A stretch of DNA of 64,000 bases from a virus: the IMG/VR virus record IMGVR_UViG_3300025928_000007, positions 5,114-69,113 of that record. One strand, written 5' to 3'. Both the position numbers and the translations under genes were made by a program. This document shows, one piece after another, positions 4,305 to 63,824 of the stretch. Below the pieces are notes generated by a model that worked only from the letters and a program-made list of their open reading frames with translations, was not told the DNA's origin and searched no databases. Within the stretch, counting starts at the first letter, position 1; each line of letters starts with the position of its first letter.

Positions 4305-6386
4305 GTGAAGCAGAGCAAGGTCAGCGTCACCGCCATCAGCAACATGACTGGCGCGAAGGTGATGGGCTTCGACCCCCATGGGACCGCCCACATCTTGTCG
4401 ATCCTGAACAACATGTACTCCGACCCCGGCCTGGCCGTCGTGCGGGAGTACGCCGCCAACGCACGCGACTCGCATGTGGAGGCTGGCAACACCGACCCGA
4501 TCCTGATCACCAGCCCGTCCTACCTGAACCCGATCCTCGTGGTGCAGGACTTCGGCACCGGCCTCAGTCCCGATGAGGTCGAGAACGTCTTTGCCGTCTA
4601 CGGCACATCCACCAAGCGTGGTGTCGAAGGCCAGATCGGCTACTTCGGCATCGGCTCGAAGTCCGCCTTCACCATCGGCTCCCAGTTCACCGTGACCGCC
4701 GTCAAGGACGGCGTCATGTCCGTCGCGCTGTTCGCGCTGGACAACGATGGGAACCCGACCGTGAACATCGTCAGCGAGACCGGCACCGACGAGCCGGATG
4801 GTGTCAAGGTCGAGGTAGCGGTCAGTGATGTGGACAACGTCACGAACGCCATCGAGCGCCTGTTCGCCACCTGGCCACAGGGCTCCGTCCTGGTGGATGG
4901 TGTCGAGCCAACCTCGATCTGGGACGATGTGGAGGAACTGGCCGAGGGCGTGCACCTGGGCTGGCGGCCTGCCGCCCACACCAGCGATGGCTTCGTGGTC
5001 ATCATGGGCGGCGTGGCCTACTCCCTGCCGACCTCCGTGGTCGAGACCCTGGACTACCGCCAGAAGACCATTGTCAACAATGTGCGCGCCAGCTACGCCA
5101 AGGTGTACCTGACCGTGCCCCTCGGCGCGGTGGACCTCACCCCGTCGCGTGAAGACCTGCGCGTCACCCCGATGACCACGGCCACGCTGAATGACATGGT
5201 GGACCGTTTCCACAACGCCCTGACACCGTGGATCACGAAGCAGATTTCGGACGCACCGACCCTGATCGCGGCAATCATCGCGGCCGACGACCTGCGCCGG
5301 AAGCTGCCGAACCGGATGTTGTCGGCCGGGCAGGGTCCGACCTGGCATGGCAAGCCGCTGCCGTCGAGCACGGTGAAGATTCCGGCCGAATGGTTCCACC
5401 TGGCCCGGCGTGGCTACTCATCACCAATGAACGCCCGCCGTGAGAGGACTGACTTCGAACTAGTCGCATCCCACACGATGAGGCAGGCGCTGTTCGTGAC
5501 CGGCGTTCCGGAGCGCCGGGTCCGTACCGTCCAGCTAGCGGCGAAGGAGTACATGCTGGCTCACAAGGACAAGGACGACCCGGAGTACACGAACCGGGTT
5601 GTGGCCCTGACCCAGCCCGATGCCGCCTATGCCCGGGAATGGTTCACCCTGTCGGACCCGCTGATCCGGACGATGGACTATGACACCTTCGCGAAGTTCC
5701 GCCCGCTGCGTGCACCTGGCTCCCACCGTGCCGAGATCAAGTATGAGGTGCACGGCTCGAACCTGCGCCAGGCGATGACGGTGCCGGAAATCAACGCACA
5801 CACCGGCAACATCTACTACCTGACCCACTACGAGCGCCCGAACTACACACCGGGCAGCCCGTTCGTGGCGCACGTGGTCGGTAACGGGCTGCTGATCGTC
5901 CTGTCCTCCACCCAGAAGGTCGAGCCCCTGCTCAAGCGGGTGCCCCGCGCGGCCAGCCTGGTGGTCCAGGCACGGGCCGAGGCTGACCGCATCCTGAACA
6001 GTGTCACCCCGGCTGACCTGGATGCGCTGGACGCGGCTAGCTTCCTGCGCAGCATCGACCAGGGCGTCTGGAACTTCCTGGCGGCGAACGAGACGGACAT
6101 CACCCACCAGGCCGTGCTGGATGCGCTGGACATGTTCACCCGCGCTCGCGTGCTGGAGCGTGGCGACCAGTCCCGCGTGGGACTCATCCAGGCCGCCCTG
6201 CGCATCACGCAGCGTAACGCCTCCACCCTCGGCACGTCCACGCTCAACCGGGCCAGCATCGATGTAGTCCTCAACGGCCTGCCCCTGCTGAGCCGGTACT
6301 TCGACCGCGACTGGCTGCGCAGCCCGCTGGGCAACCAGCACGTCATCGCCTACGTCAACATGGTCGGCCAGTCGGCCACCGACTAG
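4305..6386 (+). CDS. rIIA: rIIA-like protein (N-terminal GHKL/Hsp90-like ATPase)
   Basis: MYSD..AVVREYAANARDSH, VQDFGTGLS, YGTSTKR, IGYFGIGSKSAF motifs; followed by rIIB-like gene. Confidence 0.85.
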   Translation: MKQSKVSVTAISNMTGAKVMGFDPHGTAHILSILNNMYSDPGLAVVREYAANARDSHVEAGNTDPILITSPSYLNPILVVQDFGTGLSPDEVENVFAVYGTSTKRGVEGQIGYFGIGSKSAFTIGSQFTVTAVKDGVMSVALFALDNDGNPTVNIVSETGTDEPDGVKVEVAVSDVDNVTNAIERLFATWPQGSVLVDGVEPTSIWDDVEELAEGVHLGWRPAAHTSDGFVVIMGGVAYSLPTSVVETLDYRQKTIVNNVRASYAKVYLTVPLGAVDLTPSREDLRVTPMTTATLNDMVDRFHNALTPWITKQISDAPTLIAAIIAADDLRRKLPNRMLSAGQGPTWHGKPLPSSTVKIPAEWFHLARRGYSSPMNARRERTDFELVASHTMRQALFVTGVPERRVRTVQLAAKEYMLAHKDKDDPEYTNRVVALTQPDAAYAREWFTLSDPLIRTMDYDTFAKFRPLRAPGSHRAEIKYEVHGSNLRQAMTVPEINAHTGNIYYLTHYERPNYTPGSPFVAHVVGNGLLIVLSSTQKVEPLLKRVPRAASLVVQARAEADRILNSVTPADLDALDAASFLRSIDQGVWNFLAANETDITHQAVLDALDMFTRARVLERGDQSRVGLIQAALRITQRNASTLGTSTLNRASIDVVLNGLPLLSRYFDRDWLRSPLGNQHVIAYVNMVGQSATD

Positions 6387-24079: not shown

Positions 24080-24227
24080 TCACACGGCCATGCGGCTGCC
24101 AGTGGCGGCTATTCGAGATTCATAAGACAGACGTGTTTGGCGATGTGCTAAGCTGGTTGTCATTCCGGCAGATCACATGGTGTAACAATCATCGATACAT
24201 GGAACTGTGGAGACGGAGAAGGATTAC

Positions 24228-26306
24228 ATGAAGGACTGGGCGGCAATCAGGGCAGCACAAAACGAGGCACGAGAGAGGGATGACGAGTTTTCGTTTCTGA
24301 GCTTCAGGTTGCCGGATCGGTTCCTCGATTCCTACCGCACCCAGCAACCCGACTGGGGCTACCCTATCGGCGCGGGCAACACCCTTGGCGAGTGGGTCTG
24401 GCTGACCCGCTACAGTCGCCTGAAGGCTGACGGCACCAAGGAACGGTTCTGGGAGGGTCTGCGCCGGGTGATCGAAGGTATGTACTCGATCCAGAAGGAT
24501 CACGCCCTGCGCCATCGTCTCCCATGGAATGAGTGGACCGCACAGAAGTCCGCCGAGGAAGCCTATGCACGCGCATTCGCGGGCAAGTGGTCACCACCGG
24601 GCCGTGGCTTCTGGATGATGGGCACCGAGTTCGTCAACGGGCGCAATGATTCGAGCGCGTTGCAGAACTGCGCCTTCTTGTCCACCGCCCACATTGCCGA
24701 GGACAGCGATCTTCCGTCCGCCCCGTTCACCAAGCTGATGAACATGTCCATGCTCGGCATCGGCGTAGGCTTCGACGTGCTCGGCGCTGGCAAGGTAGAG
24801 CTTCACGATCCCAAGCCGCATGCGGGGCGGTCCTGGAAGATCGAGGACAGCCGTGAGGGCTGGTGTTCGTCGGTGGACCGTCTCCTGATGAGCTTCTTCG
24901 AGCCGAACCGTATCCTGCCTGACTTCGACTACTCAGCGATCCGCAGAGCCGGTAGCCCGATCAGGGGGTTCGGGGGTACCAGTGCTGGCCCAAAGCCGCT
25001 TAGGAGGCTGCACAGCCAGCTACAGAGGCTACTGAGCGGGCGTGCCGGGCAGACACTGTCCAGCACCGACATCGTGGACATCATGAACTTGATCGGCAAG
25101 TGCGTCATCGCCGCGAACGTGCGCAGCAGCGCCGAAATCGCACTGGGCTATGCGGACGATCAGGCATTCCTGGACCTGAAGAACTGGGAAGTCAACCCGG
25201 AGCGCATGGGACCGAACGGCTGGGGCTATACGTCGAACAACTCCGTCATTGCCCGCCCGGGTGAGGATTTGAGCCACCTGGCGGGGCTAATGGCCGCCAA
25301 TGGAGAACCCGGAGTTGTCTGGCTGGATGTGGCGCGAACACGGGGGCGGCTCGCAGATCCCCCTAACAACAAGGACCGTCGCGTCATGGGCACCAACCCC
25401 TGTGGTGAGCAGCCACTGGAGGACAACGAACTCTGCACCCTGGTCGAAACCTACCCGACCCGGTGTGACTCAAAGGCCGACTACCTCCGGACGCTGAAGT
25501 TCGCCTACCTCTATGGCAAGTCCGTCACGCTCCTGATGACCCGGTTCCCTCAGACGAATGAGGTCATGATCCGCAATCGCAGGATCGGCACGAGTATGAC
25601 CGGTATCGCATCGTTCGTGGAACAGCATGGGTGGTCCACCCTACGGGAATGGCAGGATGAGGGCTACCGGGTGATCCGTAACTGGGACGAGGTCTACTCC
25701 GAATGGCTGGGTGTGCGCGAGTCCGTGCGCGTGACCACGGTCAAGCCGAGCGGTACCGTCAGTGTGATGTTCGGCGTTACCCCCGGCGCTCACTGGCCGA
25801 CGAATGCGGGTGCTTTCATGAGGACGGTGCGGGAATCCGTGCACAGTCCCATGGTGGATGTGATGCGTATCGCCGGATACAGGGTTGAACCCAGCGTGTC
25901 CAACCCGGAGACGACCATGGTGATCTATCTTCCGGTCGAAGGCCCGGATGTCCGTCCGCAGGCCGATGTCTCGGTCTGGGAGAAGGCAGCCCTCGCCGCG
26001 CACTGCCAGCGGTACTGGTCGGATAATTCGGTTTCAGTCACTCTGACCTTTAACCCAGAAACGGAGTCCAGCCAGATCGGTTCCATCCTGCGCGCATTCG
26101 ATGGCCAGCTAAAGAGTGCGTCATTCCTGCCAGCGGTCGAGGGTGTCTATGAGCAGGCTCCGGAGCAGCGGGTGTCCATGGACGAGTGGGAGGCCGCACG
26201 CCGGGATGTGACCCCGATAGCATGGGACCTGCTATATGATAGCGGTATGGCACCCGACGCCGCAGGAGAGAAGTATTGTTCGACCGACGTATGTGAGGTG
26301 AAGTAG
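24228..26306 (+). CDS. nrdJ: Class II adenosylcobalamin-dependent ribonucleotide reductase
   Basis: SPPGRG, ALQNC, GVGF, TNPCGEQ, TVKPSGT, C-terminal CSTDVC; ATG 24228 has RBS and ATGA coupling to a 51-aa ORF (24076-24231). Confidence 0.93.
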   Translation: MKDWAAIRAAQNEARERDDEFSFLSFRLPDRFLDSYRTQQPDWGYPIGAGNTLGEWVWLTRYSRLKADGTKERFWEGLRRVIEGMYSIQKDHALRHRLPWNEWTAQKSAEEAYARAFAGKWSPPGRGFWMMGTEFVNGRNDSSALQNCAFLSTAHIAEDSDLPSAPFTKLMNMSMLGIGVGFDVLGAGKVELHDPKPHAGRSWKIEDSREGWCSSVDRLLMSFFEPNRILPDFDYSAIRRAGSPIRGFGGTSAGPKPLRRLHSQLQRLLSGRAGQTLSSTDIVDIMNLIGKCVIAANVRSSAEIALGYADDQAFLDLKNWEVNPERMGPNGWGYTSNNSVIARPGEDLSHLAGLMAANGEPGVVWLDVARTRGRLADPPNNKDRRVMGTNPCGEQPLEDNELCTLVETYPTRCDSKADYLRTLKFAYLYGKSVTLLMTRFPQTNEVMIRNRRIGTSMTGIASFVEQHGWSTLREWQDEGYRVIRNWDEVYSEWLGVRESVRVTTVKPSGTVSVMFGVTPGAHWPTNAGAFMRTVRESVHSPMVDVMRIAGYRVEPSVSNPETTMVIYLPVEGPDVRPQADVSVWEKAALAAHCQRYWSDNSVSVTLTFNPETESSQIGSILRAFDGQLKSASFLPAVEGVYEQAPEQRVSMDEWEAARRDVTPIAWDLLYDSGMAPDAAGEKYCSTDVCEVK

Positions 26307-28332: not shown

Positions 28333-29502
28333 ATGAAGCAGCTAGCACCCAAGCTCTTTAGCTGGGCATCGATCCTGGACGACCAGACCCGAATCCAGGC
28401 CGAGCAGCTATCACGCATGCCGTTCATCGACCCCTATGTGGTTCTCGAAGGTGACGCGCACTTCGGAAAGGGTGCGAGCGTTGGCACCGTGATCCCGACC
28501 AAGGGAGCGATCATCCCGGCTGCGGTTGGTGTTGACATCGGATGCGGCATGATCGCGCACCGGACCCAGTTCTATGGTCACGACCTGCGTGGCATGGACC
28601 TGACAGCATTGCGTGTCACCGTGGAGGACGCGATCCCGTCCTCAGCGGGGCGCTACAACACACACCTGACCACTAGCGCACGCCGCCGTGTCGAGGAACT
28701 TGAGGCTATGCCGGGTGCGCAGGCGGCATACGAGCTAGCGCAGAACTGGCCACTTCAGCTTGGCTCGCTGGGCTCGGGTAACCACTTCATCGAGGTAACC
28801 CTTGACGACCAGGACCGGGTATGGCTGTTCCTGCACTCCGGTTCTCGTGGCGTCGGTAACAAGCTGGCCATGAAGCACATTGGCATCGCCAAGATGATGA
28901 TGCGGCATGATGACATCCACCTGGTCAACCCGGACCTGTCCTACCTGACCGAGGGCACGGGCGAGTTCGATGACTACATCACCGATCTGCTCTGGGCGCA
29001 GCACTTCGCACTGCTGAACCGCCAGGAAATGATGCAGCGCCTGACCTATGAGTTTGGGCTGTGGATCGGTGAGCCAGTCCATGTCAGCCATGCGATTCAG
29101 TGCCACCACAACTACACAGAGCGTGTCATCGACGTGGTCAATGGCGGCATGACCTGGCTGTCCCGCAAGGGTGCCATCAACGCGGAGCGCGGGGTGCTTG
29201 GCCTGATCCCGGGCTCCATGGGCGTGGCTAGCTATGTCGTGGAAGGTCTTGGCCATGCGGAAGGCTTGAACTCAGCGCCGCATGGTGCGGGACGCCTGTA
29301 CTCTCGCGGCGCGGCGAAGCGCACCTTCACCATGGATGACATGGCGAAGCAGATGGTGGGTGTCGAGTACAAGCACGACAAGTCGCTCCTGGACGAGATT
29401 CCGGGTGCGTACAAGCCGATCACACAGGTGATGGAGGACGCATCAGAGGTGGTGCGCCCGTTGTACGAGCTTCACCCGCTGGTGAACGTCAAGGGGATGT
29501 GA
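28333..29502 (+). CDS. rtcB: RtcB-family RNA ligase
   Basis: DAHFGKG, VGVDIGCGM, GSGNHFIE, HSGSRG, HHNY, RKGA, PGSMG, HGAGR, DEIPGAYK. Confidence 0.95.
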   Translation: MKQLAPKLFSWASILDDQTRIQAEQLSRMPFIDPYVVLEGDAHFGKGASVGTVIPTKGAIIPAAVGVDIGCGMIAHRTQFYGHDLRGMDLTALRVTVEDAIPSSAGRYNTHLTTSARRRVEELEAMPGAQAAYELAQNWPLQLGSLGSGNHFIEVTLDDQDRVWLFLHSGSRGVGNKLAMKHIGIAKMMMRHDDIHLVNPDLSYLTEGTGEFDDYITDLLWAQHFALLNRQEMMQRLTYEFGLWIGEPVHVSHAIQCHHNYTERVIDVVNGGMTWLSRKGAINAERGVLGLIPGSMGVASYVVEGLGHAEGLNSAPHGAGRLYSRGAAKRTFTMDDMAKQMVGVEYKHDKSLLDEIPGAYKPITQVMEDASEVVRPLYELHPLVNVKGM

Positions 29503-55975: not shown

Positions 55976-57535
55976 TTAGTAGACGAAACCAATCTGAGAC
56001 ACCGGGGTTTCGTGCTCCTCTCCGGTGTACTCATCCTTCCACTTATAGGTCGGCTCGTCCCAAATCTGCTGAGTGAGCCAGTAGCCCGCGCGATCCACGG
56101 CCATGACCGCAGCCACGGCGAGGTCGATCTTGCGCGGAGACTGCCTGGCATCCTTCATAAGTCGTGCGCCACGGGCGTCAGTCTTTAGCTGAGCGTTCTC
56201 CAGGTGCCGTGCGAGACGCGGGTCACCGTTGTGGCTGATCTTCTGGGTAGTGACCGCCTCGTAGAAGCGCTGTGTCGCTGGACCCATCCGGCTGAGGGTC
56301 TGCGGATAGGCGACAACCGGGAGTCCTTCTTCCTCCAGTTCTTCGCCTGCATCCAGCCAGAACCATTCGTCCCATGCTATCTCGCGGACCTTGTACTTGT
56401 GGCAGGCTTGCCGGATCGCGGCCTTCACCGCACCACGTGGAACTCTCCAGTTGTCGTCCTCCGGTGGCTTCTCCCAGAGACCGATCACCTCTACCTGTGG
56501 CTCCTGTGACACCGTCACCGCTACCAGCGCGGTAGAGTCGCCATTCTTCGACCCGTCAAAGCCGAGAACGACACCCTTGGCTCCGGGGGTGAATGGTGTC
56601 TCAGTACGGCAAGAGTTCCAGCTTCCCTGTGGCAGCCATGCGACAGTCTGTGAGACCCACTGGTTCAGTCTCTTGGTCCGGTACTCGTTCTCGTGGACCT
56701 TCTTCACCACGGAGGAGAAGTCCTCGGTGTCGATCAGGTCACCATAGCCGGGGTTTGCGGCCTCCCAGACGGCGGGATCACGGTGGTCGCTCTTGGGTGG
56801 TGCGCCATACCAGGCCATGAAGAACGTGTCGTCCTCGATCTCGCCCCTGGCGATCTTCTCGCCATACTGGAAACGGCGGTAGCAGATCGAGTCGCCACCG
56901 GTTTGGTCGGTCCTGACGCCTGCGGTGGTGATGATGATGAGAAGCGGGTCACGGCGAGCACCGAAAGCCTGGACGATAACGTTGTAGAGTTCGTCGGTGG
57001 GTGCGGCATGAAGCTCGTCATAGATGGCGAGGGTAGGGTTCAAACCTTCCTTCGTGAACGCCTCACTGCTAAGCACCTTGTAGATAGAGCCCGTGTCGAG
57101 ATACTCGATGGCGTCACGGTAGACCTTGAGCATGCCGCTGAGTTCTTCGTCTAGCTCGACCATGCGCTTCGCGACATTGAACACGATGCGGGCCTGGTCC
57201 TTGTCGGCGGCCAGGGAGTAGACCTCGGAGCCGTCCGCGCCCATGACTAGGCCATGAAGACCGAAGCTGGAACCCAGCGCCGACTTGCCGTTCTTCCTCG
57301 GGAGGCCAATCAGGGCCTCACGGTGGCGGAGCCTGCCGTCCCATCGCCGGGCATACACACGGCTGGTCAGGTCCCTCTGCCATGGACGGGTCTGGATCAG
57401 TTCGCCAGCATGGCCGCCCCAGGACTCCTTGGTGATACGGCAGTAGCCCTCGATGAACTCATCGACATATGGCCCATCCCCGCGCTCGATGTCCTCCTGG
57501 GGAACGGGAGTCATCAAAAGGGGAACGGCGGTCAT
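55976..57535 (-). CDS. terL: Terminase large subunit
   Basis: PWQ, PRKNGKS, YDELH, ITTAG, GFDGS...DSTA, KIDLAVA. Confidence 0.95.
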   Translation of the reverse strand: MTAVPLLMTPVPQEDIERGDGPYVDEFIEGYCRITKESWGGHAGELIQTRPWQRDLTSRVYARRWDGRLRHREALIGLPRKNGKSALGSSFGLHGLVMGADGSEVYSLAADKDQARIVFNVAKRMVELDEELSGMLKVYRDAIEYLDTGSIYKVLSSEAFTKEGLNPTLAIYDELHAAPTDELYNVIVQAFGARRDPLLIIITTAGVRTDQTGGDSICYRRFQYGEKIARGEIEDDTFFMAWYGAPPKSDHRDPAVWEAANPGYGDLIDTEDFSSVVKKVHENEYRTKRLNQWVSQTVAWLPQGSWNSCRTETPFTPGAKGVVLGFDGSKNGDSTALVAVTVSQEPQVEVIGLWEKPPEDDNWRVPRGAVKAAIRQACHKYKVREIAWDEWFWLDAGEELEEEGLPVVAYPQTLSRMGPATQRFYEAVTTQKISHNGDPRLARHLENAQLKTDARGARLMKDARQSPRKIDLAVAAVMAVDRAGYWLTQQIWDEPTYKWKDEYTGEEHETPVSQIGFVY

Positions 57536-57570: not shown

Positions 57571-57984
57571 TCAGGACCCGGCGTCACTGCCTGAATCGTC
57601 GTCGGAAACCGCTCTTTGCGGGTTGGTGTCATACCGGCGAGTCTGTTGCTGGCGAATGCGGACAAGCTCCGTGCTGAGCTTGAAAACCTCTAGCTGAAGC
57701 TCCTGCGCCATGGTGTTGACGCGGCGCAGTTCTTCCTCTAGCTGGTCGATGGCAGCCTCGTAAATGCGCTTGGCACGGTCGAATGCCTCATCGTCTATCC
57801 GGCGCAGGTAGGCGCTCGGGGTCGCCTCGGACTTGGTAATGTTGCTGGCACGGGTAGACGCGATCCAGATCACGATGGAGATCACGGTACCGATGATGGC
57901 CAGCCCGATACCGAGAACCGTGCCGGGGTCAAGATGGAAACCATCAGCGCTGGGGGTTGCCAGGAGGCTATCAATTATCACCAT
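57571..57984 (-). CDS. Single-TM coiled-coil membrane protein
   Basis: VLGIGLAIIGTVISIVIWIA followed by heptad repeats. Confidence 0.7.
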   Translation of the reverse strand: MVIIDSLLATPSADGFHLDPGTVLGIGLAIIGTVISIVIWIASTRASNITKSEATPSAYLRRIDDEAFDRAKRIYEAAIDQLEEELRRVNTMAQELQLEVFKLSTELVRIRQQQTRRYDTNPQRAVSDDDSGSDAGS

Positions 57985-58390
57985 TGAAGTCCCCCAGGTT
58001 GAACGGACGGTGTTCCGGCCAGTAGGAGACGATAGCGGTAACCCCCGCGAAGGCATACCAAATGACAGCGGCTGCCCATTCCCTCGGCACGACTGGATGG
58101 ATCACCCAGCTATACAGGATCATGGACGCCCAGAAAATCTTCAGGGCGACCGCCGAGGTAAAGCCGATACGGTCCAGCCGGGCGAATGCCTGGACGAGGC
58201 AGACGAGGCCCACGAAGAACCACATAATTCCCCATGTCCGTGCCGGGATAACGGTGTCATACGCCTGGGATATCGGCGTTGGGTCGATATACACCGACCA
58301 CCCAAACAGGGTGTCCAGCAGCGCGAGAAACAGGAGAAAACTACCACGCCTGCCAATACGCCCTATCAGCCTCCGCACGGCGTTAGTCAT
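57971..58390 (-). CDS. 4-TM membrane protein
   Basis: GRRGSFLLFLA...WPEHRPF; paralogue of the next gene. Confidence 0.75.
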   Translation of the reverse strand: MTNAVRRLIGRIGRRGSFLLFLALLDTLFGWSVYIDPTPISQAYDTVIPARTWGIMWFFVGLVCLVQAFARLDRIGFTSAVALKIFWASMILYSWVIHPVVPREWAAAVIWYAFAGVTAIVSYWPEHRPFNLGDFNGDN

Positions 58391-58826
58391 GGTCGTCTCC
58401 ATCAAAATCTTCTAGCGTGAACGGCCGGTGCTCGGGCCAGTTTGAAACAATGGCTGTTACTCCTGCGAAGGCGAACCACTTGACCGCCATCGGGAAAGCA
58501 TTAGGGTTTGTGCCGGTGTAGGCCCAGGAGTAGAACAGGATCAGCGCCCAGGTGGTAATGAGGCCAACCGATGCGGAGAAGGCAATCCGGTCCTGCTTCG
58601 CGAACGACTGGATAGCGCACACGGCTGTCACGGCGGAGAAGATGACCGCCCATACCGAGTGGGCCAGGATGAGGTCTACGCCCGGCCCGGCGAAGGGTGC
58701 CGTGTTGGTCCACAGTTCCCAGGCTTGAACCGCACCAGCGATGGCGAGGAACATCAGGTATGCGCCCCGGCGGCCTACACGGCTGACGAGACCTGACTTT
58801 ATGCGCCCCCGTACGCGCGTGTGCAT
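58383..58826 (-). CDS. 4-TM membrane protein
   Basis: GRRGAYLMFLA...WPEHRPF. Confidence 0.75.
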   Translation of the reverse strand: MHTRVRGRIKSGLVSRVGRRGAYLMFLAIAGAVQAWELWTNTAPFAGPGVDLILAHSVWAVIFSAVTAVCAIQSFAKQDRIAFSASVGLITTWALILFYSWAYTGTNPNAFPMAVKWFAFAGVTAIVSNWPEHRPFTLEDFDGDDHD

Positions 58827-58833
58827 ACCACAG

Positions 58834-59439
58834 TCACCACACAGGAACCGGTCGGCTCATCCAGCCATTGTCGAGGCCCCAGCGCATGCAGTCAGCCGGG
58901 CACACATAGTCCGGGCTCTCCGTAGCGGCGGTCAATAGCGGGCCGATGTCCACATGCATGGCCTCCTGCTCGCGCACCACGGTACCGGAGCAGATGGCCA
59001 TCTTCTTGTTCGCGAATAGCTGCTCGAACGGAACATGAAGATGTGCCACCGTCGCCAGGTACCAGGCATAGGCGCGCACATCATAATGCATGCCCACCAT
59101 GCCCTTCGCCGCACCCACGCCCACGAGAAGCTGGGCGTCCGACAGTGGCTGCCCGGTAGCCCAGATCACATCGGACTGGGCCGTGGCCCGGCTGATCTCC
59201 ACCTTGGGCCATTCGGCCTGCACGATGGCCGGTGCGATATCCGGCTTTAGCTCGGTGCCGAAGTTGTGGTTACCGATGAAGATGACACAGTGCCCCGCCC
59301 AGGAGGCGTCCCTGTCACCATGCGGGAAACGTGCCTTCCGGGTCATGCGCATCTGCGCGTCACGAATGGCGGTGCCGAAGAAACCGGTACCGTGGGCGCA
59401 GCCCCACATGCCCGGCCTCAGATCACTTGGAAGCTCCAT
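58834..59439 (-). CDS. Permuted papain-like amidase (NlpC/P60, YaeF/YiiX type)
   Basis: LRPG...GHCVIFIG (His first)...GMHYD...ICSG (Cys last). Confidence 0.7.
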   Translation of the reverse strand: MELPSDLRPGMWGCAHGTGFFGTAIRDAQMRMTRKARFPHGDRDASWAGHCVIFIGNHNFGTELKPDIAPAIVQAEWPKVEISRATAQSDVIWATGQPLSDAQLLVGVGAAKGMVGMHYDVRAYAWYLATVAHLHVPFEQLFANKKMAICSGTVVREQEAMHVDIGPLLTAATESPDYVCPADCMRWGLDNGWMSRPVPVW

Positions 59440-59956
59440 CCTTGCTCCTGTTTGCTCGTGTCTTGTTTTGGAGATCGGCTATACCGGTCCTGGTCTTGAC
59501 CTCCACCAGGCCAAGACGAGCCCTATCCGCCGGGGAGAATCCAAGCTGAGACAGGCACTTGCGAATGGTAGCCTCCAGCATTCTCATTTCCTTGAGAAGC
59601 GGATTCGCCACCACCATACCCTTGACATAACCCTTGACCACAAGCCCTGTCTTGTTGACCTCATCGCGGAATGCCTCCAAGTCATCATAGGCGCGGGCGA
59701 TCTGCTCCACCCAGTGATAGTCCTCAGCGGGGTGCAGCCAGACGATGCCCGCCTCCCAAATCTTGTCCCACTCCCTCAGGCCACGCTCCTTCAGGCCCTC
59801 CGGAGCGGCCGGGATATCGATCACACGACCGGTAATGACACGCCCGGGAGTGGTGGCCACATCCGTGCCGGGCCTGCGGCCATCGGGCCTCCTGCCATCC
59901 CCACGTGCCTGCGCGGCCTGTCGCTCAAGAGGGATCGGCGGACGCCCCGCTGGCAT
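59423..59956 (-). CDS. terS: Terminase small subunit (P27-like)
   Basis: MPAGRPPIP, P..P..L...G.REW, NP.L, LGFSPADRARLG; TAATG coupling. Confidence 0.85.
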   Translation of the reverse strand: MPAGRPPIPLERQAAQARGDGRRPDGRRPGTDVATTPGRVITGRVIDIPAAPEGLKERGLREWDKIWEAGIVWLHPAEDYHWVEQIARAYDDLEAFRDEVNKTGLVVKGYVKGMVVANPLLKEMRMLEATIRKCLSQLGFSPADRARLGLVEVKTRTGIADLQNKTRANRSKDGASK

Positions 59957-60627
59957 TACTGCCCGATCAGCGCGGGAACCGTCTGCCAGTTCTGGGCGAA
60001 TGCCTGCTGAAGCTGGTGGATACGGATCATCGTCGCGTTTACATCCGGCATCAGGGCGCACATCCAGCGGTCAGCCGGAAACTCCGCCGTCACATCCTTG
60101 CGGTTCGGAATCGCGCCATCCTGCTCATCCCAGAGGTTAGCCGCGCTGTTAGTGCCACCCGCGAAGCGGGGGATCAGGTGGTCGAGTTCACCATTGACGC
60201 CACCTGACGGAATCCCATACAGGGTGGCGATCTGGCCGAACTTCAGCGCATTCGTCTCACTCTCCGGAGCGCGGAGATTGCGCCATGAGTCGCTCATCGT
60301 GTAATGGCCGGGGGTGCCAGTAGGCACGCACAGATCAGACGGGCCAATGGCCGGGTCATACGCGCCCGGGGTGCAGTGTGAATCCGGCAGATTACCCGAT
60401 GGTGTCGTCGTGATATGGCATGGTCCCGTAACCGGGAATGCCTGGACATGGCCGGTCTCCGTGGTCTGGACCGGGCCTGGCCCCGGTGAGACTGTCGCGG
60501 AGGGTGAGGCTGATACAGAGGGTGAGGCTGGTGGTGTGGTCGAGAACGTGCCCGAGGATGTATAACTTGAGCATGCCGTCAGCGCAGCCGTCGCGGCTGT
60601 CGCTATCGCCAGGAGGATGCGTCTCAT
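59956..60627 (-). CDS. Lipoprotein with HNH-like motif
   Basis: Lipobox LTA-C; Ser/Pro/Thr linker; LPD.HCTPG; ELDHLIP...GGTN...NLW...N.KD. Confidence 0.75.
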   Translation of the reverse strand: MRRILLAIATAATAALTACSSYTSSGTFSTTPPASPSVSASPSATVSPGPGPVQTTETGHVQAFPVTGPCHITTTPSGNLPDSHCTPGAYDPAIGPSDLCVPTGTPGHYTMSDSWRNLRAPESETNALKFGQIATLYGIPSGGVNGELDHLIPRFAGGTNSAANLWDEQDGAIPNRKDVTAEFPADRWMCALMPDVNATMIRIHQLQQAFAQNWQTVPALIGQ

Positions 60628-60793: not shown

Positions 60794-61198
60794 CTATGCT
60801 TCTCCAACCCACGCAACTACATCTTCGACATGATCTGGTGGCATGAACCATTCACCATCCGGGCGAATACGGTGCCGCCCGAAGTGCTCATGGAGCCAGC
60901 GCTCCTCACCATAGGCGCTAGGGGTATAGGTGACACCCTTGACCTCCAGCCGCCACGGACAGCCCGTCTGGAGGGTCTGGAGGCGCTTCTGGAGGTTGTT
61001 AGTCACGCCAATCTTGATGGGCCTGATGTTCGGGTCCTCGAACCCGATGATGTAGACGCACAGGTTCGGGTCGGGCAATCTCTTGGCGGACCCATCGTGC
61101 GGGAACGCCCTCGATCTCTGCGGGGGTGGACGCCCTCTGCCGGGCTGCCGGGAGGCGTCTCGGAGCGCCCGGTCCCACAATCGCGCCCATGCGCCCAT
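60794..61198 (-). CDS. GIY-YIG nuclease (T5orf172/MUG113-like)
   Basis: VYIIG...IKIGVT...RLQTLQTGCP...E..LH..F...GEWF; GGGAGG RBS. Confidence 0.8.
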   Translation of the reverse strand: MGAWARLWDRALRDASRQPGRGRPPPQRSRAFPHDGSAKRLPDPNLCVYIIGFEDPNIRPIKIGVTNNLQKRLQTLQTGCPWRLEVKGVTYTPSAYGEERWLHEHFGRHRIRPDGEWFMPPDHVEDVVAWVGEA

Positions 61199-61457
61199 CC
61201 TGGCCTCCCGTCACTTCGACCCTATATGGCACTGTACCACCCATAGCGGACGGATGACCCCACCAGACATATGTCAGGTGCTTGTGCATGAAGTACAGGA
61301 CGCCCATGCTGATCGCGAACCCAATCCAGCTAATGACCGCCAGAACCACGAAGGCGACGAAGATGGCATGGGCGAGTACCCAAATAAGGGCCGCCGCGCC
61401 GATGGTTCCCAGGAGGGTTCCACCCGCTCCCTTCGGCTCACAACAGCAGCATGCCAT
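60999..61457 (-). CDS. Small membrane protein coupled to the translocase (Spd-like?)
   Basis: TAATG coupling; MACCCC N-terminus; two TM helices. Confidence 0.65.
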   Translation of the reverse strand: MACCCCEPKGAGGTLLGTIGAAALIWVLAHAIFVAFVVLAVISWIGFAISMGVLYFMHKHLTYVWWGHPSAMGGTVPYRVEVTGGQDGRMGAIVGPGAPRRLPAARQRASTPAEIEGVPARWVRQEIARPEPVRLHHRVRGPEHQAHQDWRD

Positions 61458-63274
61458 TACTTCGCCCTTCCTTCGAACCAGGTCTCGATCTCATCGCGCC
61501 AGTATTCCTTCGGACGGCCCTGCTGGTTCAAGCGTATACCACAGTGCTCGGGGAACTCCGGGTCACGGAAGGCGGCATTGCGGAGGGCCTTACCGTTCAT
61601 CGGGACGATGCCCTTGTCCGCTACCTCCTGAAGGGTTACCTTCTGGCGCTCCTGAACGATCTCCGCCTCAACAATCGCCTCGGAGTCAGAGCTTCCCCTG
61701 GTCAGCGCTGGGGCAGAAGGATCAAGGGTCCTTGCCTCGGGGTCAAGCCGTGGGTCGTTAACGGTGTCCTTCGGGAATGGTGTAATCTGGCCACTGGATG
61801 CGAAATCCCTAGCTTCCCGGCCGCCAACCATGGCTGCCTGGCACTCACGGACAATAGCGGTAACGACCTGGATATGGCCCGGCTTCATCGTGCGTGTGCG
61901 TGGCATGTCGAACTCCGGAACCAGCATACGCCAGTTGTTCTTGGTGTACCGGCCGAGGATTCGGACACCCATGTTCTCACGCGCTGCGCCCGAGCCAGCG
62001 GCGAGGGCGGTCATCATCTGTGCCACCGCGAAGATGTTCACGCGAACCTGGCGGCCCATGAACAGAGCGGTCTCCATAGCGGTGATAGCGGGTGACTTCT
62101 TCGGTGCTGTCGGAGCCCGGTTGTCATTCCACCATACGCGCAGGCGCGCGTTCATTTCGTTCAGTTCTTCTGCGATCACCAGAAGGCGGGGGCCGACGTT
62201 GGCGAGAATGTTGCCCTCGACATCATGGCTCCTGTCCGCGATACGAGTCCGGATTTCGATCTCATTGGACAGCCATATGAGGGCCGCATGAATCTCGTCG
62301 GTGCTTGCCGCATAGCGGACGTTTGGCAGGCCCTTAGCCCAGGCATGAGAAATGCGCTTCGGGTCAAGGATGAGTACGATACCGCCATTGTGAAGAACCT
62401 GTGCGGCAACGAGACGGGCGAGCACGGACTTACCACCACCCGCGCCGATGGAAAGGCCGAAGTGCGGCGAGTCAGCCGCGAGGCTAACCTTTACCGGAAG
62501 GTCACCACGGCCGAGGCCAAGCACAACGGCGTCCTCACCGGCCTTCTCGATTTCGAGGGCGATGTCGGCCAGACTCACCTCGGGCGGCGGGGCCTTGCGG
62601 TTCTTGATGTCCACATAGGAGTCGTCACCCTCTAGGTGCCATTCGGCATCGGACTCCGGGTGCCATCCCATCGTCTCAGTGACAACCTGAACAAAACGGC
62701 CCCGCTCCTCCGGGGTGCCATTCCAGTTCTTCGGCATCTGGAATCTGGCTGCCTGCCGCTTCGGGTCGGTAAACCTGATCCAGCGGCTTCCTCCCCGGCC
62801 GCCGTGGAGTGGCCTGTTCGCATGCGGGGCTACAGCCCTGTGAAGAATGGTCGCATGCTTGCGGTGGCCCCTGACCTTCTCCAGCCTGTACACTCTCCAT
62901 GCCGCCTCTAGCATGAGTCCTGCTCCCATCACGAATACGAGGAACCACAATGGCTGGGCATCCGTGAGGAATGCCATGCCGAACAGTGGCGGCCCAATGG
63001 TGAGGCCAGTCCTGATACCGGCTCTATGTGCGCGTGCCTTGAAATGATAATGGACGGAGCCCGGGTCGTACATGTGCCGGTAACGGCGGTCGGCGTCATT
63101 CCTTACCCATGGTGGAAGCCCTCCGGAGAACCAGCGCCAGAGCACGAACAAATGGCCGTGGTGGTTCATCATCGCCTTGATGTGGCCAATCCAGCCAGCG
63201 ATAAAGAGCACGATGATAACGAGGACGACGAGTGCCGCCACAAAGAGGTCCGCGTGTAGCTGTGCCATAGTCAT
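61457..63274 (-). CDS. Membrane-anchored FtsK/SpoIIIE-family (TraB-like) DNA translocase
   Basis: N-terminal TMs; SPH...GAGGGKS Walker A; LDPK; LLVIAEE Walker B; GRQ.....AQ; RENMG; C-terminal HTH-like tail. Confidence 0.82.
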   Translation of the reverse strand: MTMAQLHADLFVAALVVLVIIVLFIAGWIGHIKAMMNHHGHLFVLWRWFSGGLPPWVRNDADRRYRHMYDPGSVHYHFKARAHRAGIRTGLTIGPPLFGMAFLTDAQPLWFLVFVMGAGLMLEAAWRVYRLEKVRGHRKHATILHRAVAPHANRPLHGGRGGSRWIRFTDPKRQAARFQMPKNWNGTPEERGRFVQVVTETMGWHPESDAEWHLEGDDSYVDIKNRKAPPPEVSLADIALEIEKAGEDAVVLGLGRGDLPVKVSLAADSPHFGLSIGAGGGKSVLARLVAAQVLHNGGIVLILDPKRISHAWAKGLPNVRYAASTDEIHAALIWLSNEIEIRTRIADRSHDVEGNILANVGPRLLVIAEELNEMNARLRVWWNDNRAPTAPKKSPAITAMETALFMGRQVRVNIFAVAQMMTALAAGSGAARENMGVRILGRYTKNNWRMLVPEFDMPRTRTMKPGHIQVVTAIVRECQAAMVGGREARDFASSGQITPFPKDTVNDPRLDPEARTLDPSAPALTRGSSDSEAIVEAEIVQERQKVTLQEVADKGIVPMNGKALRNAAFRDPEFPEHCGIRLNQQGRPKEYWRDEIETWFEGRAK

Positions 63275-63492
63275 AGTCTTTCGCCTCTTATCTTGCGGAG
63301 CAAGAAAGGTGTGGGCAAAAGGATTGCGCTTTTACTCCGCGCGCTTTATCTCGCCTGCCTAACCTCTCGGCTCGCTAGCTTCTCGCTCGCCTTCCTTCTC
63401 GTCTGCCGAACTGATCTAATTTGGCGTTTACATTCCCGCCGGATTACTGGCCGGTAACTTCAAATCACATCCGTGTAACACGTCATTCCGGC

Positions 63493-63521
63493 TTGCCATT
63501 CCGGCCGGTGTCCTGTAAGCT
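63493..63521 (+). promoter_or_regulatory. SigA/HrdB-type promoter (leaderless transcript)
   Basis: TTGCCA-N17-TAAGCT, ATG 6 nt downstream. Confidence 0.6.
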
Positions 63522-63527
63522 GATAGC

Positions 63528-63824
63528 ATGACAACGAACCGGAAGCCCGCCATCCAGGTCAAGATCCACCATGGCAAGATCGTTCCCATCGTGAAGGCCG
63601 GTCACTGGCTGCACGTGGAAGGCTTCACCGCCCTGGTGATCATTGCCATTATAACAGTTGCCCGGATCGTCAAGATCATCGGCTGCCTGGTGTGGTCCGC
63701 TGGGTGCCTGATCGTTCCCCCGATTGCCCGGCTGGTCCCCCGCTATGCGCCCCGGCTTACCCGGCTCGTCCTCCGCTACGCGGCCGGGATCTACCTGGCC
63801 TTCCAAGCCTTCTACACACACTAG
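63528..63824 (+). CDS. Small hydrophobic/basic membrane protein
   Basis: Leaderless ATG; internal 33-nt (11-aa) repeat ARLVPRYAP / TRLVLRYAA. Confidence 0.55.
   Translation: MTTNRKPAIQVKIHHGKIVPIVKAGHWLHVEGFTALVIIAIITVARIVKIIGCLVWSAGCLIVPPIARLVPRYAPRLTRLVLRYAAGIYLAFQAFYTH

Follow-up and report, generated by a model that had tools for sequence, protein, structure and literature searches.

A predicted membrane-anchored FtsK-like ATPase with a C-terminal winged helix, carried by a tailed phage beside its packaging genes

The plasmid transfer proteins pIJ101 Tra/KilA and pSVH1 TraB are described in passages of PMC4447253 as FtsK-like ATPases that carry a C-terminal winged helix, and their genes are followed by genes for small membrane proteins with overlapping stop and start codons. 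FtsK-like genes without an established function have also been noted in the Streptomyces phages Geonosis, Mandalore, Naboo, Jaresh and AndoPrime, and likewise ORF63 of Thermobifida phage P1312 is FtsK-like, according to passages in published papers (PMC11536984, 10.1101/2024.02.16.580700, PMC13587820 and PMC4569894); a preliminary description of the locus studied here, made from its sequence alone, had also mentioned such genes in some Streptomyces phages. We examined an ATPase gene that resembles the plasmid systems in both respects and lies in a 64,000-nt window of DNA from an uncultured phage, positions 5114-69113 of a linear IMG/VR virus record of 69,113 b (IMGVR_UViG_3300025928_000007, labelled G000). 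The CheckV completeness of this record is 77%, and 23% of the genome is missing. All coordinates refer to the window, while L and G labels denote the loci of relatives and the viral records, respectively. The gene (61457..63274, minus strand) encodes a 605-aa membrane protein with an FtsK-like motor and a winged helix, recognised from the open reading frame (ORF), its motifs, an AlphaFold (AF2) model, Foldseek and its homologues, and it belongs to a family that we call pRL2-11-like after its plasmid member.

The preliminary description had proposed N-terminal transmembrane (TM) helices, an FtsK/SpoIIIE ATPase with variant motifs and a helix-turn-helix (HTH)-like C-terminus. The membrane part is present, with three helices predicted within residues 1-126 (62897..63274, minus strand) from hydropathy, from the loops rich in Lys and Arg and from long helices in the model. 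In particular, hydropathy and charge distribution give a strong TM1 at residues ~8-32 and a weaker hairpin at 85-103/108-126. The K/R-rich loops occupy residues 33-84 (9 K/R) and 126-170 (11 K/R), and by the positive-inside rule this distribution places the N-terminus outside and the ATPase in the cytoplasm. The motor domain (residues ~225-500; 61775..62602, minus strand) was delimited by invariant columns and by alignments to pIJ101 Tra and FtsK. Both reported motifs are there, SIGAGGGKS at residues 275-283 and LLVIAEE at residues 364-370; the first is a canonical Walker A (GxxGxGKS) and not a variant, whereas the second, the Walker B, does deviate, with Glu-Glu in place of the Asp-Glu that the alignments show in FtsK and pIJ101 Tra. 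Further features of the motor are DPK at residues 304-306, the invariant Q419 and G407-R408, and invariant columns are spread over the whole length of the protein.

The AF2 model, built on 39 family members, reached a pLDDT of 88.8 and a pTM of 0.71 and contained long N-terminal helices. Its best Foldseek match was the FtsK motor 6t8b_D (E 8.5e-15, TM 0.56 on the target, 363 columns) and the second was TcpA, the FtsK-like coupling protein of pCW3 (6o1w; E 9.7e-13), followed by EccC/EssC at 1e-9 and weaker, and by HerA and VirB4 at much weaker values of ~1e-4. The FtsK/SpoIIIE assignment thus stands at the level of fold, although it does not extend to a match with the corresponding Pfam family, PF01580. 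In profile comparisons with hhalign the ATPase aligned to the pIJ101 Tra family at 94.2% (E 1.1e-7; 331 columns, which take in the part ahead of the P-loop) and to the E. coli FtsK motor at 94.8% (E 5.4e-8; 100 columns). Walker A, DPK, Walker B and the conserved Gln aligned with both pIJ101 Tra and FtsK. pIJ101 Tra and FtsK form a closer pair in the same comparison (97.4%, E 1.2e-11), and by these distances the pRL2-11-like family is probably a separate FtsK-like ATPase branch outside TraB proper; a BLASTP alignment of the ATPase with pIJ101 Tra was not significant (E 0.41). The label TraB-like, which the protein had been given, therefore holds for the TM-ATPase-winged helix architecture and for the kinship with actinomycete plasmids described below, but membership of the TraB family itself is not supported, the relation to pIJ101 Tra being remote.

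Other searches with the ATPase sequence gave no named family. DUF87/HerA (PF01935; E 0.0023, 18.5 bits) and AAA_10 (PF12846; E 0.0019, 17.7 bits) stayed below their cut-offs of 23.2 and 27.5 bits, respectively, and the NCBIfam matches to TraD and EccCb were both far below threshold. PHROGs had no family for the ATPase or for the protein with two predicted membrane helices encoded next to it (2-TM protein), and PADLOC had none for these two, for the HNH lipoprotein or for the 201-aa protein (orf201) encoded further downstream. A sequence search of the PDB returned nothing significant, TcpA being the best entry (E 0.45).

We also modelled residues 225-500 in three copies, with a score of 0.50 compared to 0.14 for the best of 3 controls; of 30 proteins whose solved structures are pairs of one chain, 20 reach the score mark applied, compared to 1 out of 23 solved as single chains. 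Contact agreement between the runs was at least 76% and partner pLDDT at least 82. The contacts are head-to-tail and bring the invariant G407-R408 near the Walker B of the neighbouring copy, which makes R408 a candidate arginine finger. The motor domain probably forms a ring, and, since FtsK hexamers have already been solved, the pass of this model may reflect likeness only.

The HTH-like C-terminus was borne out as a small winged helix (residues ~545-605; 61460..61642, minus strand), supported by conservation, a model and VIA-align. In an alignment of 14 sequences the final 60 residues show conservation (VTL.EA...R..FP..G.....Y....W), and the domain modelled alone had a pLDDT of 85.8. Foldseek found no match to this model at E <= 0.001, and when the C-terminal domains of the 14 sequences were searched against Pfam, 3 matched HTH_17 (best E 0.044). 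With the exhaustive VIA-align comparison we recovered excisionases (8c3t, Z 6.0; 2kvv, 5.9; 8dgl, 5.6; 4j2n, 5.3), the packaging-redirection entry 6hn7 (5.8), the TerS-type domain 7lxs (5.6) and MerR N-domains (~5.0). Rows with Z >= 5 had an rmsd of 2.0-4.3 A over 52-66 aligned residues, and Z 5-6 is the range that the aligner itself warns is common. From these structural comparisons the domain is a probable DNA-binding winged helix of the excisionase/MerR class.

A word-indexed homologue search, in which 8000 candidates were scored, gave 185 relatives at E <= 0.001, mostly of ~600 aa; very few of them carry a name, and those names are 'pRL2-11' and 'helicase HerA domain-containing'. The profile search against 1.84 billion cluster representatives (clusters at 50% identity) gave 3082 matches at E <= 1e-3, 1455 at E <= 1e-10 and 869 clusters at E <= 1e-30, with a large profile coverage in most of the 150 matches listed. 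Judged by these homologues and by the hosts described below, the family is large, restricted to actinomycetes and without a Pfam model of its own. Among 72,556 plasmid records, 83 contained a relative, 69 of them from Streptomyces. The member on CP108772, an 18-kb linear plasmid, shares 34% identity with the ATPase over 87% of the query (E 8e-63). In this plasmid, in pRL2 (NC_007927) and in pPR2 (NC_019291), only pRL2-11 and its counterparts match the ATPase, besides pRL2-14, a short paralogue of pRL2-11 within pRL2, and no gene of these three plasmids bears an FtsK or TraB annotation. A DUF2637 membrane protein precedes the ATPase gene in pRL2 and pPR2, and pRL2 has a GntR regulator as well, an arrangement that one would expect around a transfer gene. 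Both pRL2 (L005, 10322-12252) and pPR2 (L006, 8514-10330) have the family member in two parts, the C-terminal one, winged helix included, being encoded by the next ORF or frame, either by a frameshift or through an error of sequencing or annotation.

All 80 genomic loci were found in actinomycetes, mostly in filamentous genera. Streptomyces and Micromonospora were the commonest hosts, and Actinoplanes, Dactylosporangium, Plantactinospora, Pseudonocardia, Streptosporangium, Planobispora, Actinomadura and others were also represented. Within 10 kb of these loci we found a DUF927 replication gene in 16 cases, DUF2637 in 9 and a KorA-like gene in 7, while the structural genes of the window phage were found at none of the 80. 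On the viral side the family was present at 49 loci of viral contigs. Among 50,697 records of cultured phages, tblastn detected a relative in one only, Streptomyces phage Dagobah, whose gp87, an ATPase core of 309 aa, aligns with 35% of the query; the other phage proteins annotated as FtsK-like therefore belong to other families.

The ATPase gene is the first of a long leftward array, as judged from the 253-b intergenic region and the divergent ORF that lie upstream of it. Its TAA stop shares one base with the ATG of the ORF for the 152-aa 2-TM protein (60999..61457, minus strand), and the TAATG overlap noted in the preliminary description was confirmed in the sequence. On the same strand the 2-TM gene is followed by a MUG113/T5orf172 gene, a doubtful 133-aa ORF, a gene for a lipoprotein with an HNH motif and terS, and then by genes for a 201-aa protein, two paralogous TM proteins, a 1-TM coiled-coil protein, terL, portal, protease and capsid. 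Every gene from the ATPase down to terS and terL lies on the minus strand; the co-oriented run that had been described is thus real, with several genes between the ATPase and terS. We found the same order (ATPase, overlapping 2-TM ORF, MUG113, terS, TM proteins, terL, portal, protease and capsid) in four independent viral contigs, L008-L011, with 46-47% identity to the window for the ATPase and 77-78% for terL. A fifth contig, L016, keeps it partly, retaining the ATPase (45%), terS, terL (72%) and portal together with a fusion of a 2-TM protein and an HNH domain. The 2-TM ORF at this place has 116-128 aa in L008-L011 and is a 211-aa HNH fusion in L016 (L016:960-1595), and tblastn detected no sequence similarity between the 2-TM protein of the window and its positional counterparts. 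The MUG113 copies of L008-L011 share 59-67% identity with that of the window. HNH proteins recur beside the ATPase in differing forms, as a lipoprotein near terS in the window and as the fusion in L016.

We then placed the ATPase core in a FastTree of 131 rows (L129, L134 and L054, short or with stops, were dropped from 134); the tree has many long branches, and our use of it is limited to the two supported clades in which the window lies. The window groups with L008-L011 (support 100), and this group sits in an 18-row clade that includes 15 viral rows and 2 loci from metagenome-assembled genomes (MAGs) (support 96), apart from the pRL2 and pPR2 plasmid clades. A large Micromonosporaceae clade, also apart from that of the window, mixes 30 genomic and 13 viral rows, and in one of its proviruses the ATPase core is the same as that of a locus in Actinoplanes italicus DSM 43146. 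Searches of the 69,113-b record revealed neither a tyrosine integrase nor a large serine recombinase domain nor ParB, and an integrase was found in none of the records of five clade relatives, the largest of 97 kb and 87% complete. By its conserved synteny and its mostly viral clade the ATPase gene is phage-owned, in agreement with the preliminary description, which had drawn the same conclusion from the lack of an integrase or Rep nearby. That the gene belongs to a separate inserted element (an actinomycete integrative and conjugative element or a plasmid) or to an assembly chimera, as its position 726 b from the contig end and its relatives on plasmids might suggest and as the same description had considered a possible refutation, is almost certainly wrong, because the gene order recurs in the contigs above, the 97-kb record of L008 (87% complete) continues for 10 kb upstream of its ATPase with small ORFs on both strands, among them a divergent small hydrophobic ORF, the clade is mostly viral, and no Rep, integrase, DUF2637 or GntR gene is nearby.

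The position next to the packaging genes is more restricted than the ownership. We found a terL of the PF03354 type in 14 out of the 49 viral records, and it adjoins the ATPase only in the clade of the window (G001, G002, G003, G006 and G007). Heading the packaging operon, as the gene had been described to do, is therefore a trait of this clade and not of the family. Of the 49 viral records, 14 had a tyrosine integrase and 3 a serine integrase, and among those at least 90% complete the numbers were 7 and 1 out of 15, respectively. In 12 of the 17 integrase-bearing records (within L012-L056) the ATPase lies 2.5-5.9 kb from the integrase, a proximity that recalls the integrative conjugative elements (ICEs) of actinomycetes.

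The reading that we favour, tentatively and at somewhat less than an even chance, is that this gene, owned by the phage, encodes an ATPase of the FtsK/TraB kind which is anchored in the membrane and moves phage DNA between hyphal compartments or cells. The three N-terminal helices would anchor the protein in the cytoplasmic membrane, the motor domain would assemble into a ring and the excisionase/MerR-type winged helix would select a DNA site. We infer that the ATPase binds such a site and pumps double-stranded DNA, and its most likely activity would be to move such DNA with the energy of ATP at a membrane or septum. Replicated phage DNA might then pass between hyphal compartments or cells, as with the plasmid Tra proteins; this biological role is speculative and drawn by analogy. 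The virion-independent spread that the preliminary description had proposed is a conjecture from distant homology.

Several observations weigh against this reading. The 605-aa protein had no Pfam match to FtsK_SpoIIIE (PF01580) at E <= 0.01 and no Pfam family above threshold, and 16 out of 39 family members matched PF01580 only weakly (best E 1.7e-6). The residue after the conserved Gln is Met here, Arg in FtsK and Lys in pIJ101 Tra, and the Arg of FtsK at this place is one that we take to be its arginine finger. The literature searched contained no member of the pRL2-11-like family tested for plasmid transfer, and the filamentous growth of the host is an assumption drawn from the distribution of the family. 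In four of the other nine records with a PF03354-type terL (G004, G015, G037 and G041, inspected by hand) this gene lies 19-26 kb from the ATPase. Hallmarks of plasmid transfer were looked for as well: an array of 8-bp repeats like clt was not found across the 69 kb, where no 8-mer occurred at least 4 times in any 400 b and the top z for over-representation was 2.6, in a search made with a repeat word not known beforehand and with 23% of the genome missing. Near the ATPase gene only local repeats of 2-3 copies were present, in the window and in relatives alike, and relatives shared no repeat there. The contig contained no GntR or KorA (tblastn with pIJ101 KorA and pRL2 GntR, best E 0.63) and no homologue of DUF2637, SpdB or DUF927 (best E 0.47 over all of these); the 2-TM protein, though its gene overlaps the ATPase stop, showed no similarity to SpdB or DUF2637.

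In a wider form of the favoured reading, which we rate as rather unlikely, a large tailed phage in which no lysogeny genes were detected would use a plasmid-type pump, produced along with the late gene products, to push replicated genomes through the hyphal cross-walls into adjacent compartments or hyphae, and the same family near integrases of temperate relatives would let prophages transfer in the manner of ICEs. If this were true, the entry of one virion would seed many compartments, with intramycelial spread without virions.

Quite unlikely, in our view, is a role as a replication or packaging helper that holds or feeds replicating or concatemeric phage DNA at the membrane, or uses its TerS/Xis-like winged helix to mark a site for the terminase, with no movement between cells. 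Such a helper would suit a gene that heads an operon running into terS and terL in the clade of the window, and also the C-terminal neighbours that include the TerS-type 7lxs (Z 5.6) and 6hn7 (Z 5.8), an entry on how the packaging of a helper phage is redirected, values that fall in the commonly reached range. The phage, however, already has both terS and terL, and the adjacency to terL is confined to this clade, the distance being 19-26 kb in the four records named above.

A conflict function would have the ATPase exclude or expel the DNA of superinfecting phages or conjugating plasmids, or serve the prophage state. In its favour, an integrase accompanies the family member in 17 out of 49 viral records, and in 12 of the 17 the ATPase lies 2.5-5.9 kb from it, a usual place for genes expressed from a prophage. 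Against it, no integrase was found in five records of the clade of the window, where the gene is placed among late genes, and PADLOC recognised neither the ATPase nor its 2-TM neighbour; we regard this function as quite improbable.

It is very doubtful that the ATPase mimics host development, acting like the septal FtsK-type pumps and trapping phage DNA in spores or disturbing chromosome segregation and septation. All 80 genomic loci are from actinomycetes, mostly of sporulating filamentous genera, and passages in Streptomyces phage papers link phage FtsK-like proteins to the multicellular development of the host, conjecturally (PMC13587820). The ATPase is nevertheless no closer to FtsK than to plasmid Tra, and the structural comparisons made, with Z values in the commonly reached range of 5-6, gave no clear domain of the FtsK-gamma type.

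The spread of phages inside multicellular, compartmented bacteria is hardly known. If pumps such as the one favoured here move phage DNA across septa or between hyphae, they would provide a particle-free route of viral spread and gene flow, and the boundary between phages and conjugative elements would be blurred in the main antibiotic-producing bacteria. Even without a role in transfer, the ATPase defines a family of membrane ATPases with a predicted DNA-binding tail, the 869 clusters counted above, common to small plasmids, large linear plasmids and many phages.

Upstream of the ATPase gene the intergenic region of 253 b (63275..63527), read from the sequence, is the presumed promoter/operator region of the leftward late operon. 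A consensus promoter scan gave 0 promoter-like sites, and 5 terminator-like sites were found against 5.0 expected. A 98-aa hydrophobic protein is encoded divergently (63528..63824, plus strand); in tblastx its ORF matches the one that takes the same divergent position in L008 (9451..9738, minus strand there), and neither Pfam nor PADLOC had a family for it. A 14-nt word like TTGCCCGGATCGTC occurs in three copies inside this ORF (63658-63770, plus strand; spacing 66 and 33 nt), ~400 b upstream of the ATPase gene, and the copies coincide with a repeated peptide, ARIV/ARLV/TRLV; this repeat family is probably a coding repeat. The record ends 726 b beyond the ATPase gene, and the further upstream context thus falls outside it. 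The contig ends showed no overlap, and no tRNA genes were found in the record.

Downstream, residues 13-58 encoded by the 152-aa ORF are strongly hydrophobic and were interpreted as two membrane helices, and the C-terminal third of this ORF overlaps the next one and may not be genuine. That next gene (60794..61198, minus strand), whose true start is probably internal, encodes a GIY-YIG-like protein with Pfam matches to MUG113 (2.7e-13) and T5orf172 (3.5e-11); in PADLOC the protein has a match to PDC-S57, a candidate defence family (E 1.8e-8). The ORF for the protein with an HNH-like motif and a lipoprotein signal (59956-60627, minus strand) is directly upstream of terS, which is of the P27 type (59423..60061, minus strand; Pfam Terminase_4 2.8e-13, phrog_83 1.1e-20). 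The four ORFs between terS and terL (57571-59439, minus strand) encode the 201-aa protein, the TM proteins of 147 and 144 aa and the 1-TM coiled-coil protein, and terL follows (55976..57535, minus strand; Pfam TerL_ATPase 1.3e-24, TerL_nuclease 2.5e-20). One of the two TM proteins matches phrog_4026, 'minor tail protein' (E 1.2e-12).

We considered these four proteins (tm147, tm144, tm161 and orf201) as a Spd-like spread module acting with the ATPase and rejected it, as the TM proteins among them represent a phage family and not plasmid Spd proteins. Homologues of tm144/147 occur near an ATPase homologue in 10 out of 49 viral loci, a co-occurrence explained by the residence of both in actinophages. 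The tm144/147 family has members in 8 Streptomyces phages, one of them LazerLemon, where they are encoded between tail and endolysin genes, and in the plasmid collection it was found in a single record of 11.85 Mb. In L013 the TM pair accompanies homologues of both the 201-aa and the 1-TM protein, and no terminase detected in that locus is close by. The genes between terS and terL look like a movable cassette of the envelope or lysis type. Finally, elsewhere in the window we identified a class II ribonucleotide reductase (24207-26306, plus strand; RNR_Alpha 3e-20), an RtcB RNA ligase (28333-29502, plus strand; 3.4e-100) and a 693-aa protein with a GHKL ATPase domain (4305-6386, plus strand; HATPase_c_3 2.3e-8).

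Among the systems already described, FtsK/SpoIIIE is the best structural match and, like the predicted topology here, membrane-anchored; the window ATPase is much shorter, phage-borne and without a match to Pfam FtsK_SpoIIIE. The gamma winged helix of FtsK reads oriented 8-bp words; the C-terminal neighbours found here were of the excisionase, MerR and TerS kinds, at Z 5-6. TcpA of the Clostridium plasmid pCW3, second in structure and first, though not significantly, in the PDB sequence search, partners a type IV secretion system; none was seen here, where no systematic search for one was made. pIJ101 Tra matches Pfam FtsK_SpoIIIE (9.3e-10) and has a winged helix of the MarR type, while the window ATPase matches neither model and its winged helix is probably of the excisionase/MerR class. 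Tra and TraB are borne by plasmids and the window ATPase by a tailed phage, and hhalign places it about equally far from pIJ101 Tra and from E. coli FtsK. The pRL2-11 and 'DUF87 domain-containing' plasmid proteins are of the same family over nearly the full length, C-terminal domain included. These plasmid members lie beside DUF2637, GntR and DUF927 replication genes, none of which was found in the phage contig, and form separate clades from the phage members in the FastTree.

The closest layout is that of the plasmid-phage pZL12 (GQ919031), which Zhong et al. in 2010 reportedly found to make virions and also to have a conjugal transfer locus. Its pZL12.71c, FtsK/SpoIIIE-like according to the depositors, shares its strand with terL and is located 2.6 kb upstream of that gene, so that the layout is that of the window. 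In pZL12 (L140/L141) 71c and its large neighbours 72c and 73c stand directly upstream of the terminase and structural operon on that strand, and none of the three had a Pfam family at E <= 0.001. The terL of pZL12 (pZL12.67c, Terminase_6N 1e-14) is of a different type from that of the window, pZL12.71c shows no relation to the window ATPase detectable beyond the P-loop (hhalign 9%, E 0.0037), and pZL12 has ParA/ParB and an integrase, which were not found in the window record. The idea of a phage FtsK-like pump is itself already known from pZL12 and from published notes on Streptomyces phages. The window ATPase is set apart from the known systems in that no TraB accessory features and no lysogeny genes were found, by its divergent family and different winged helix, and by its placement in a late operon.

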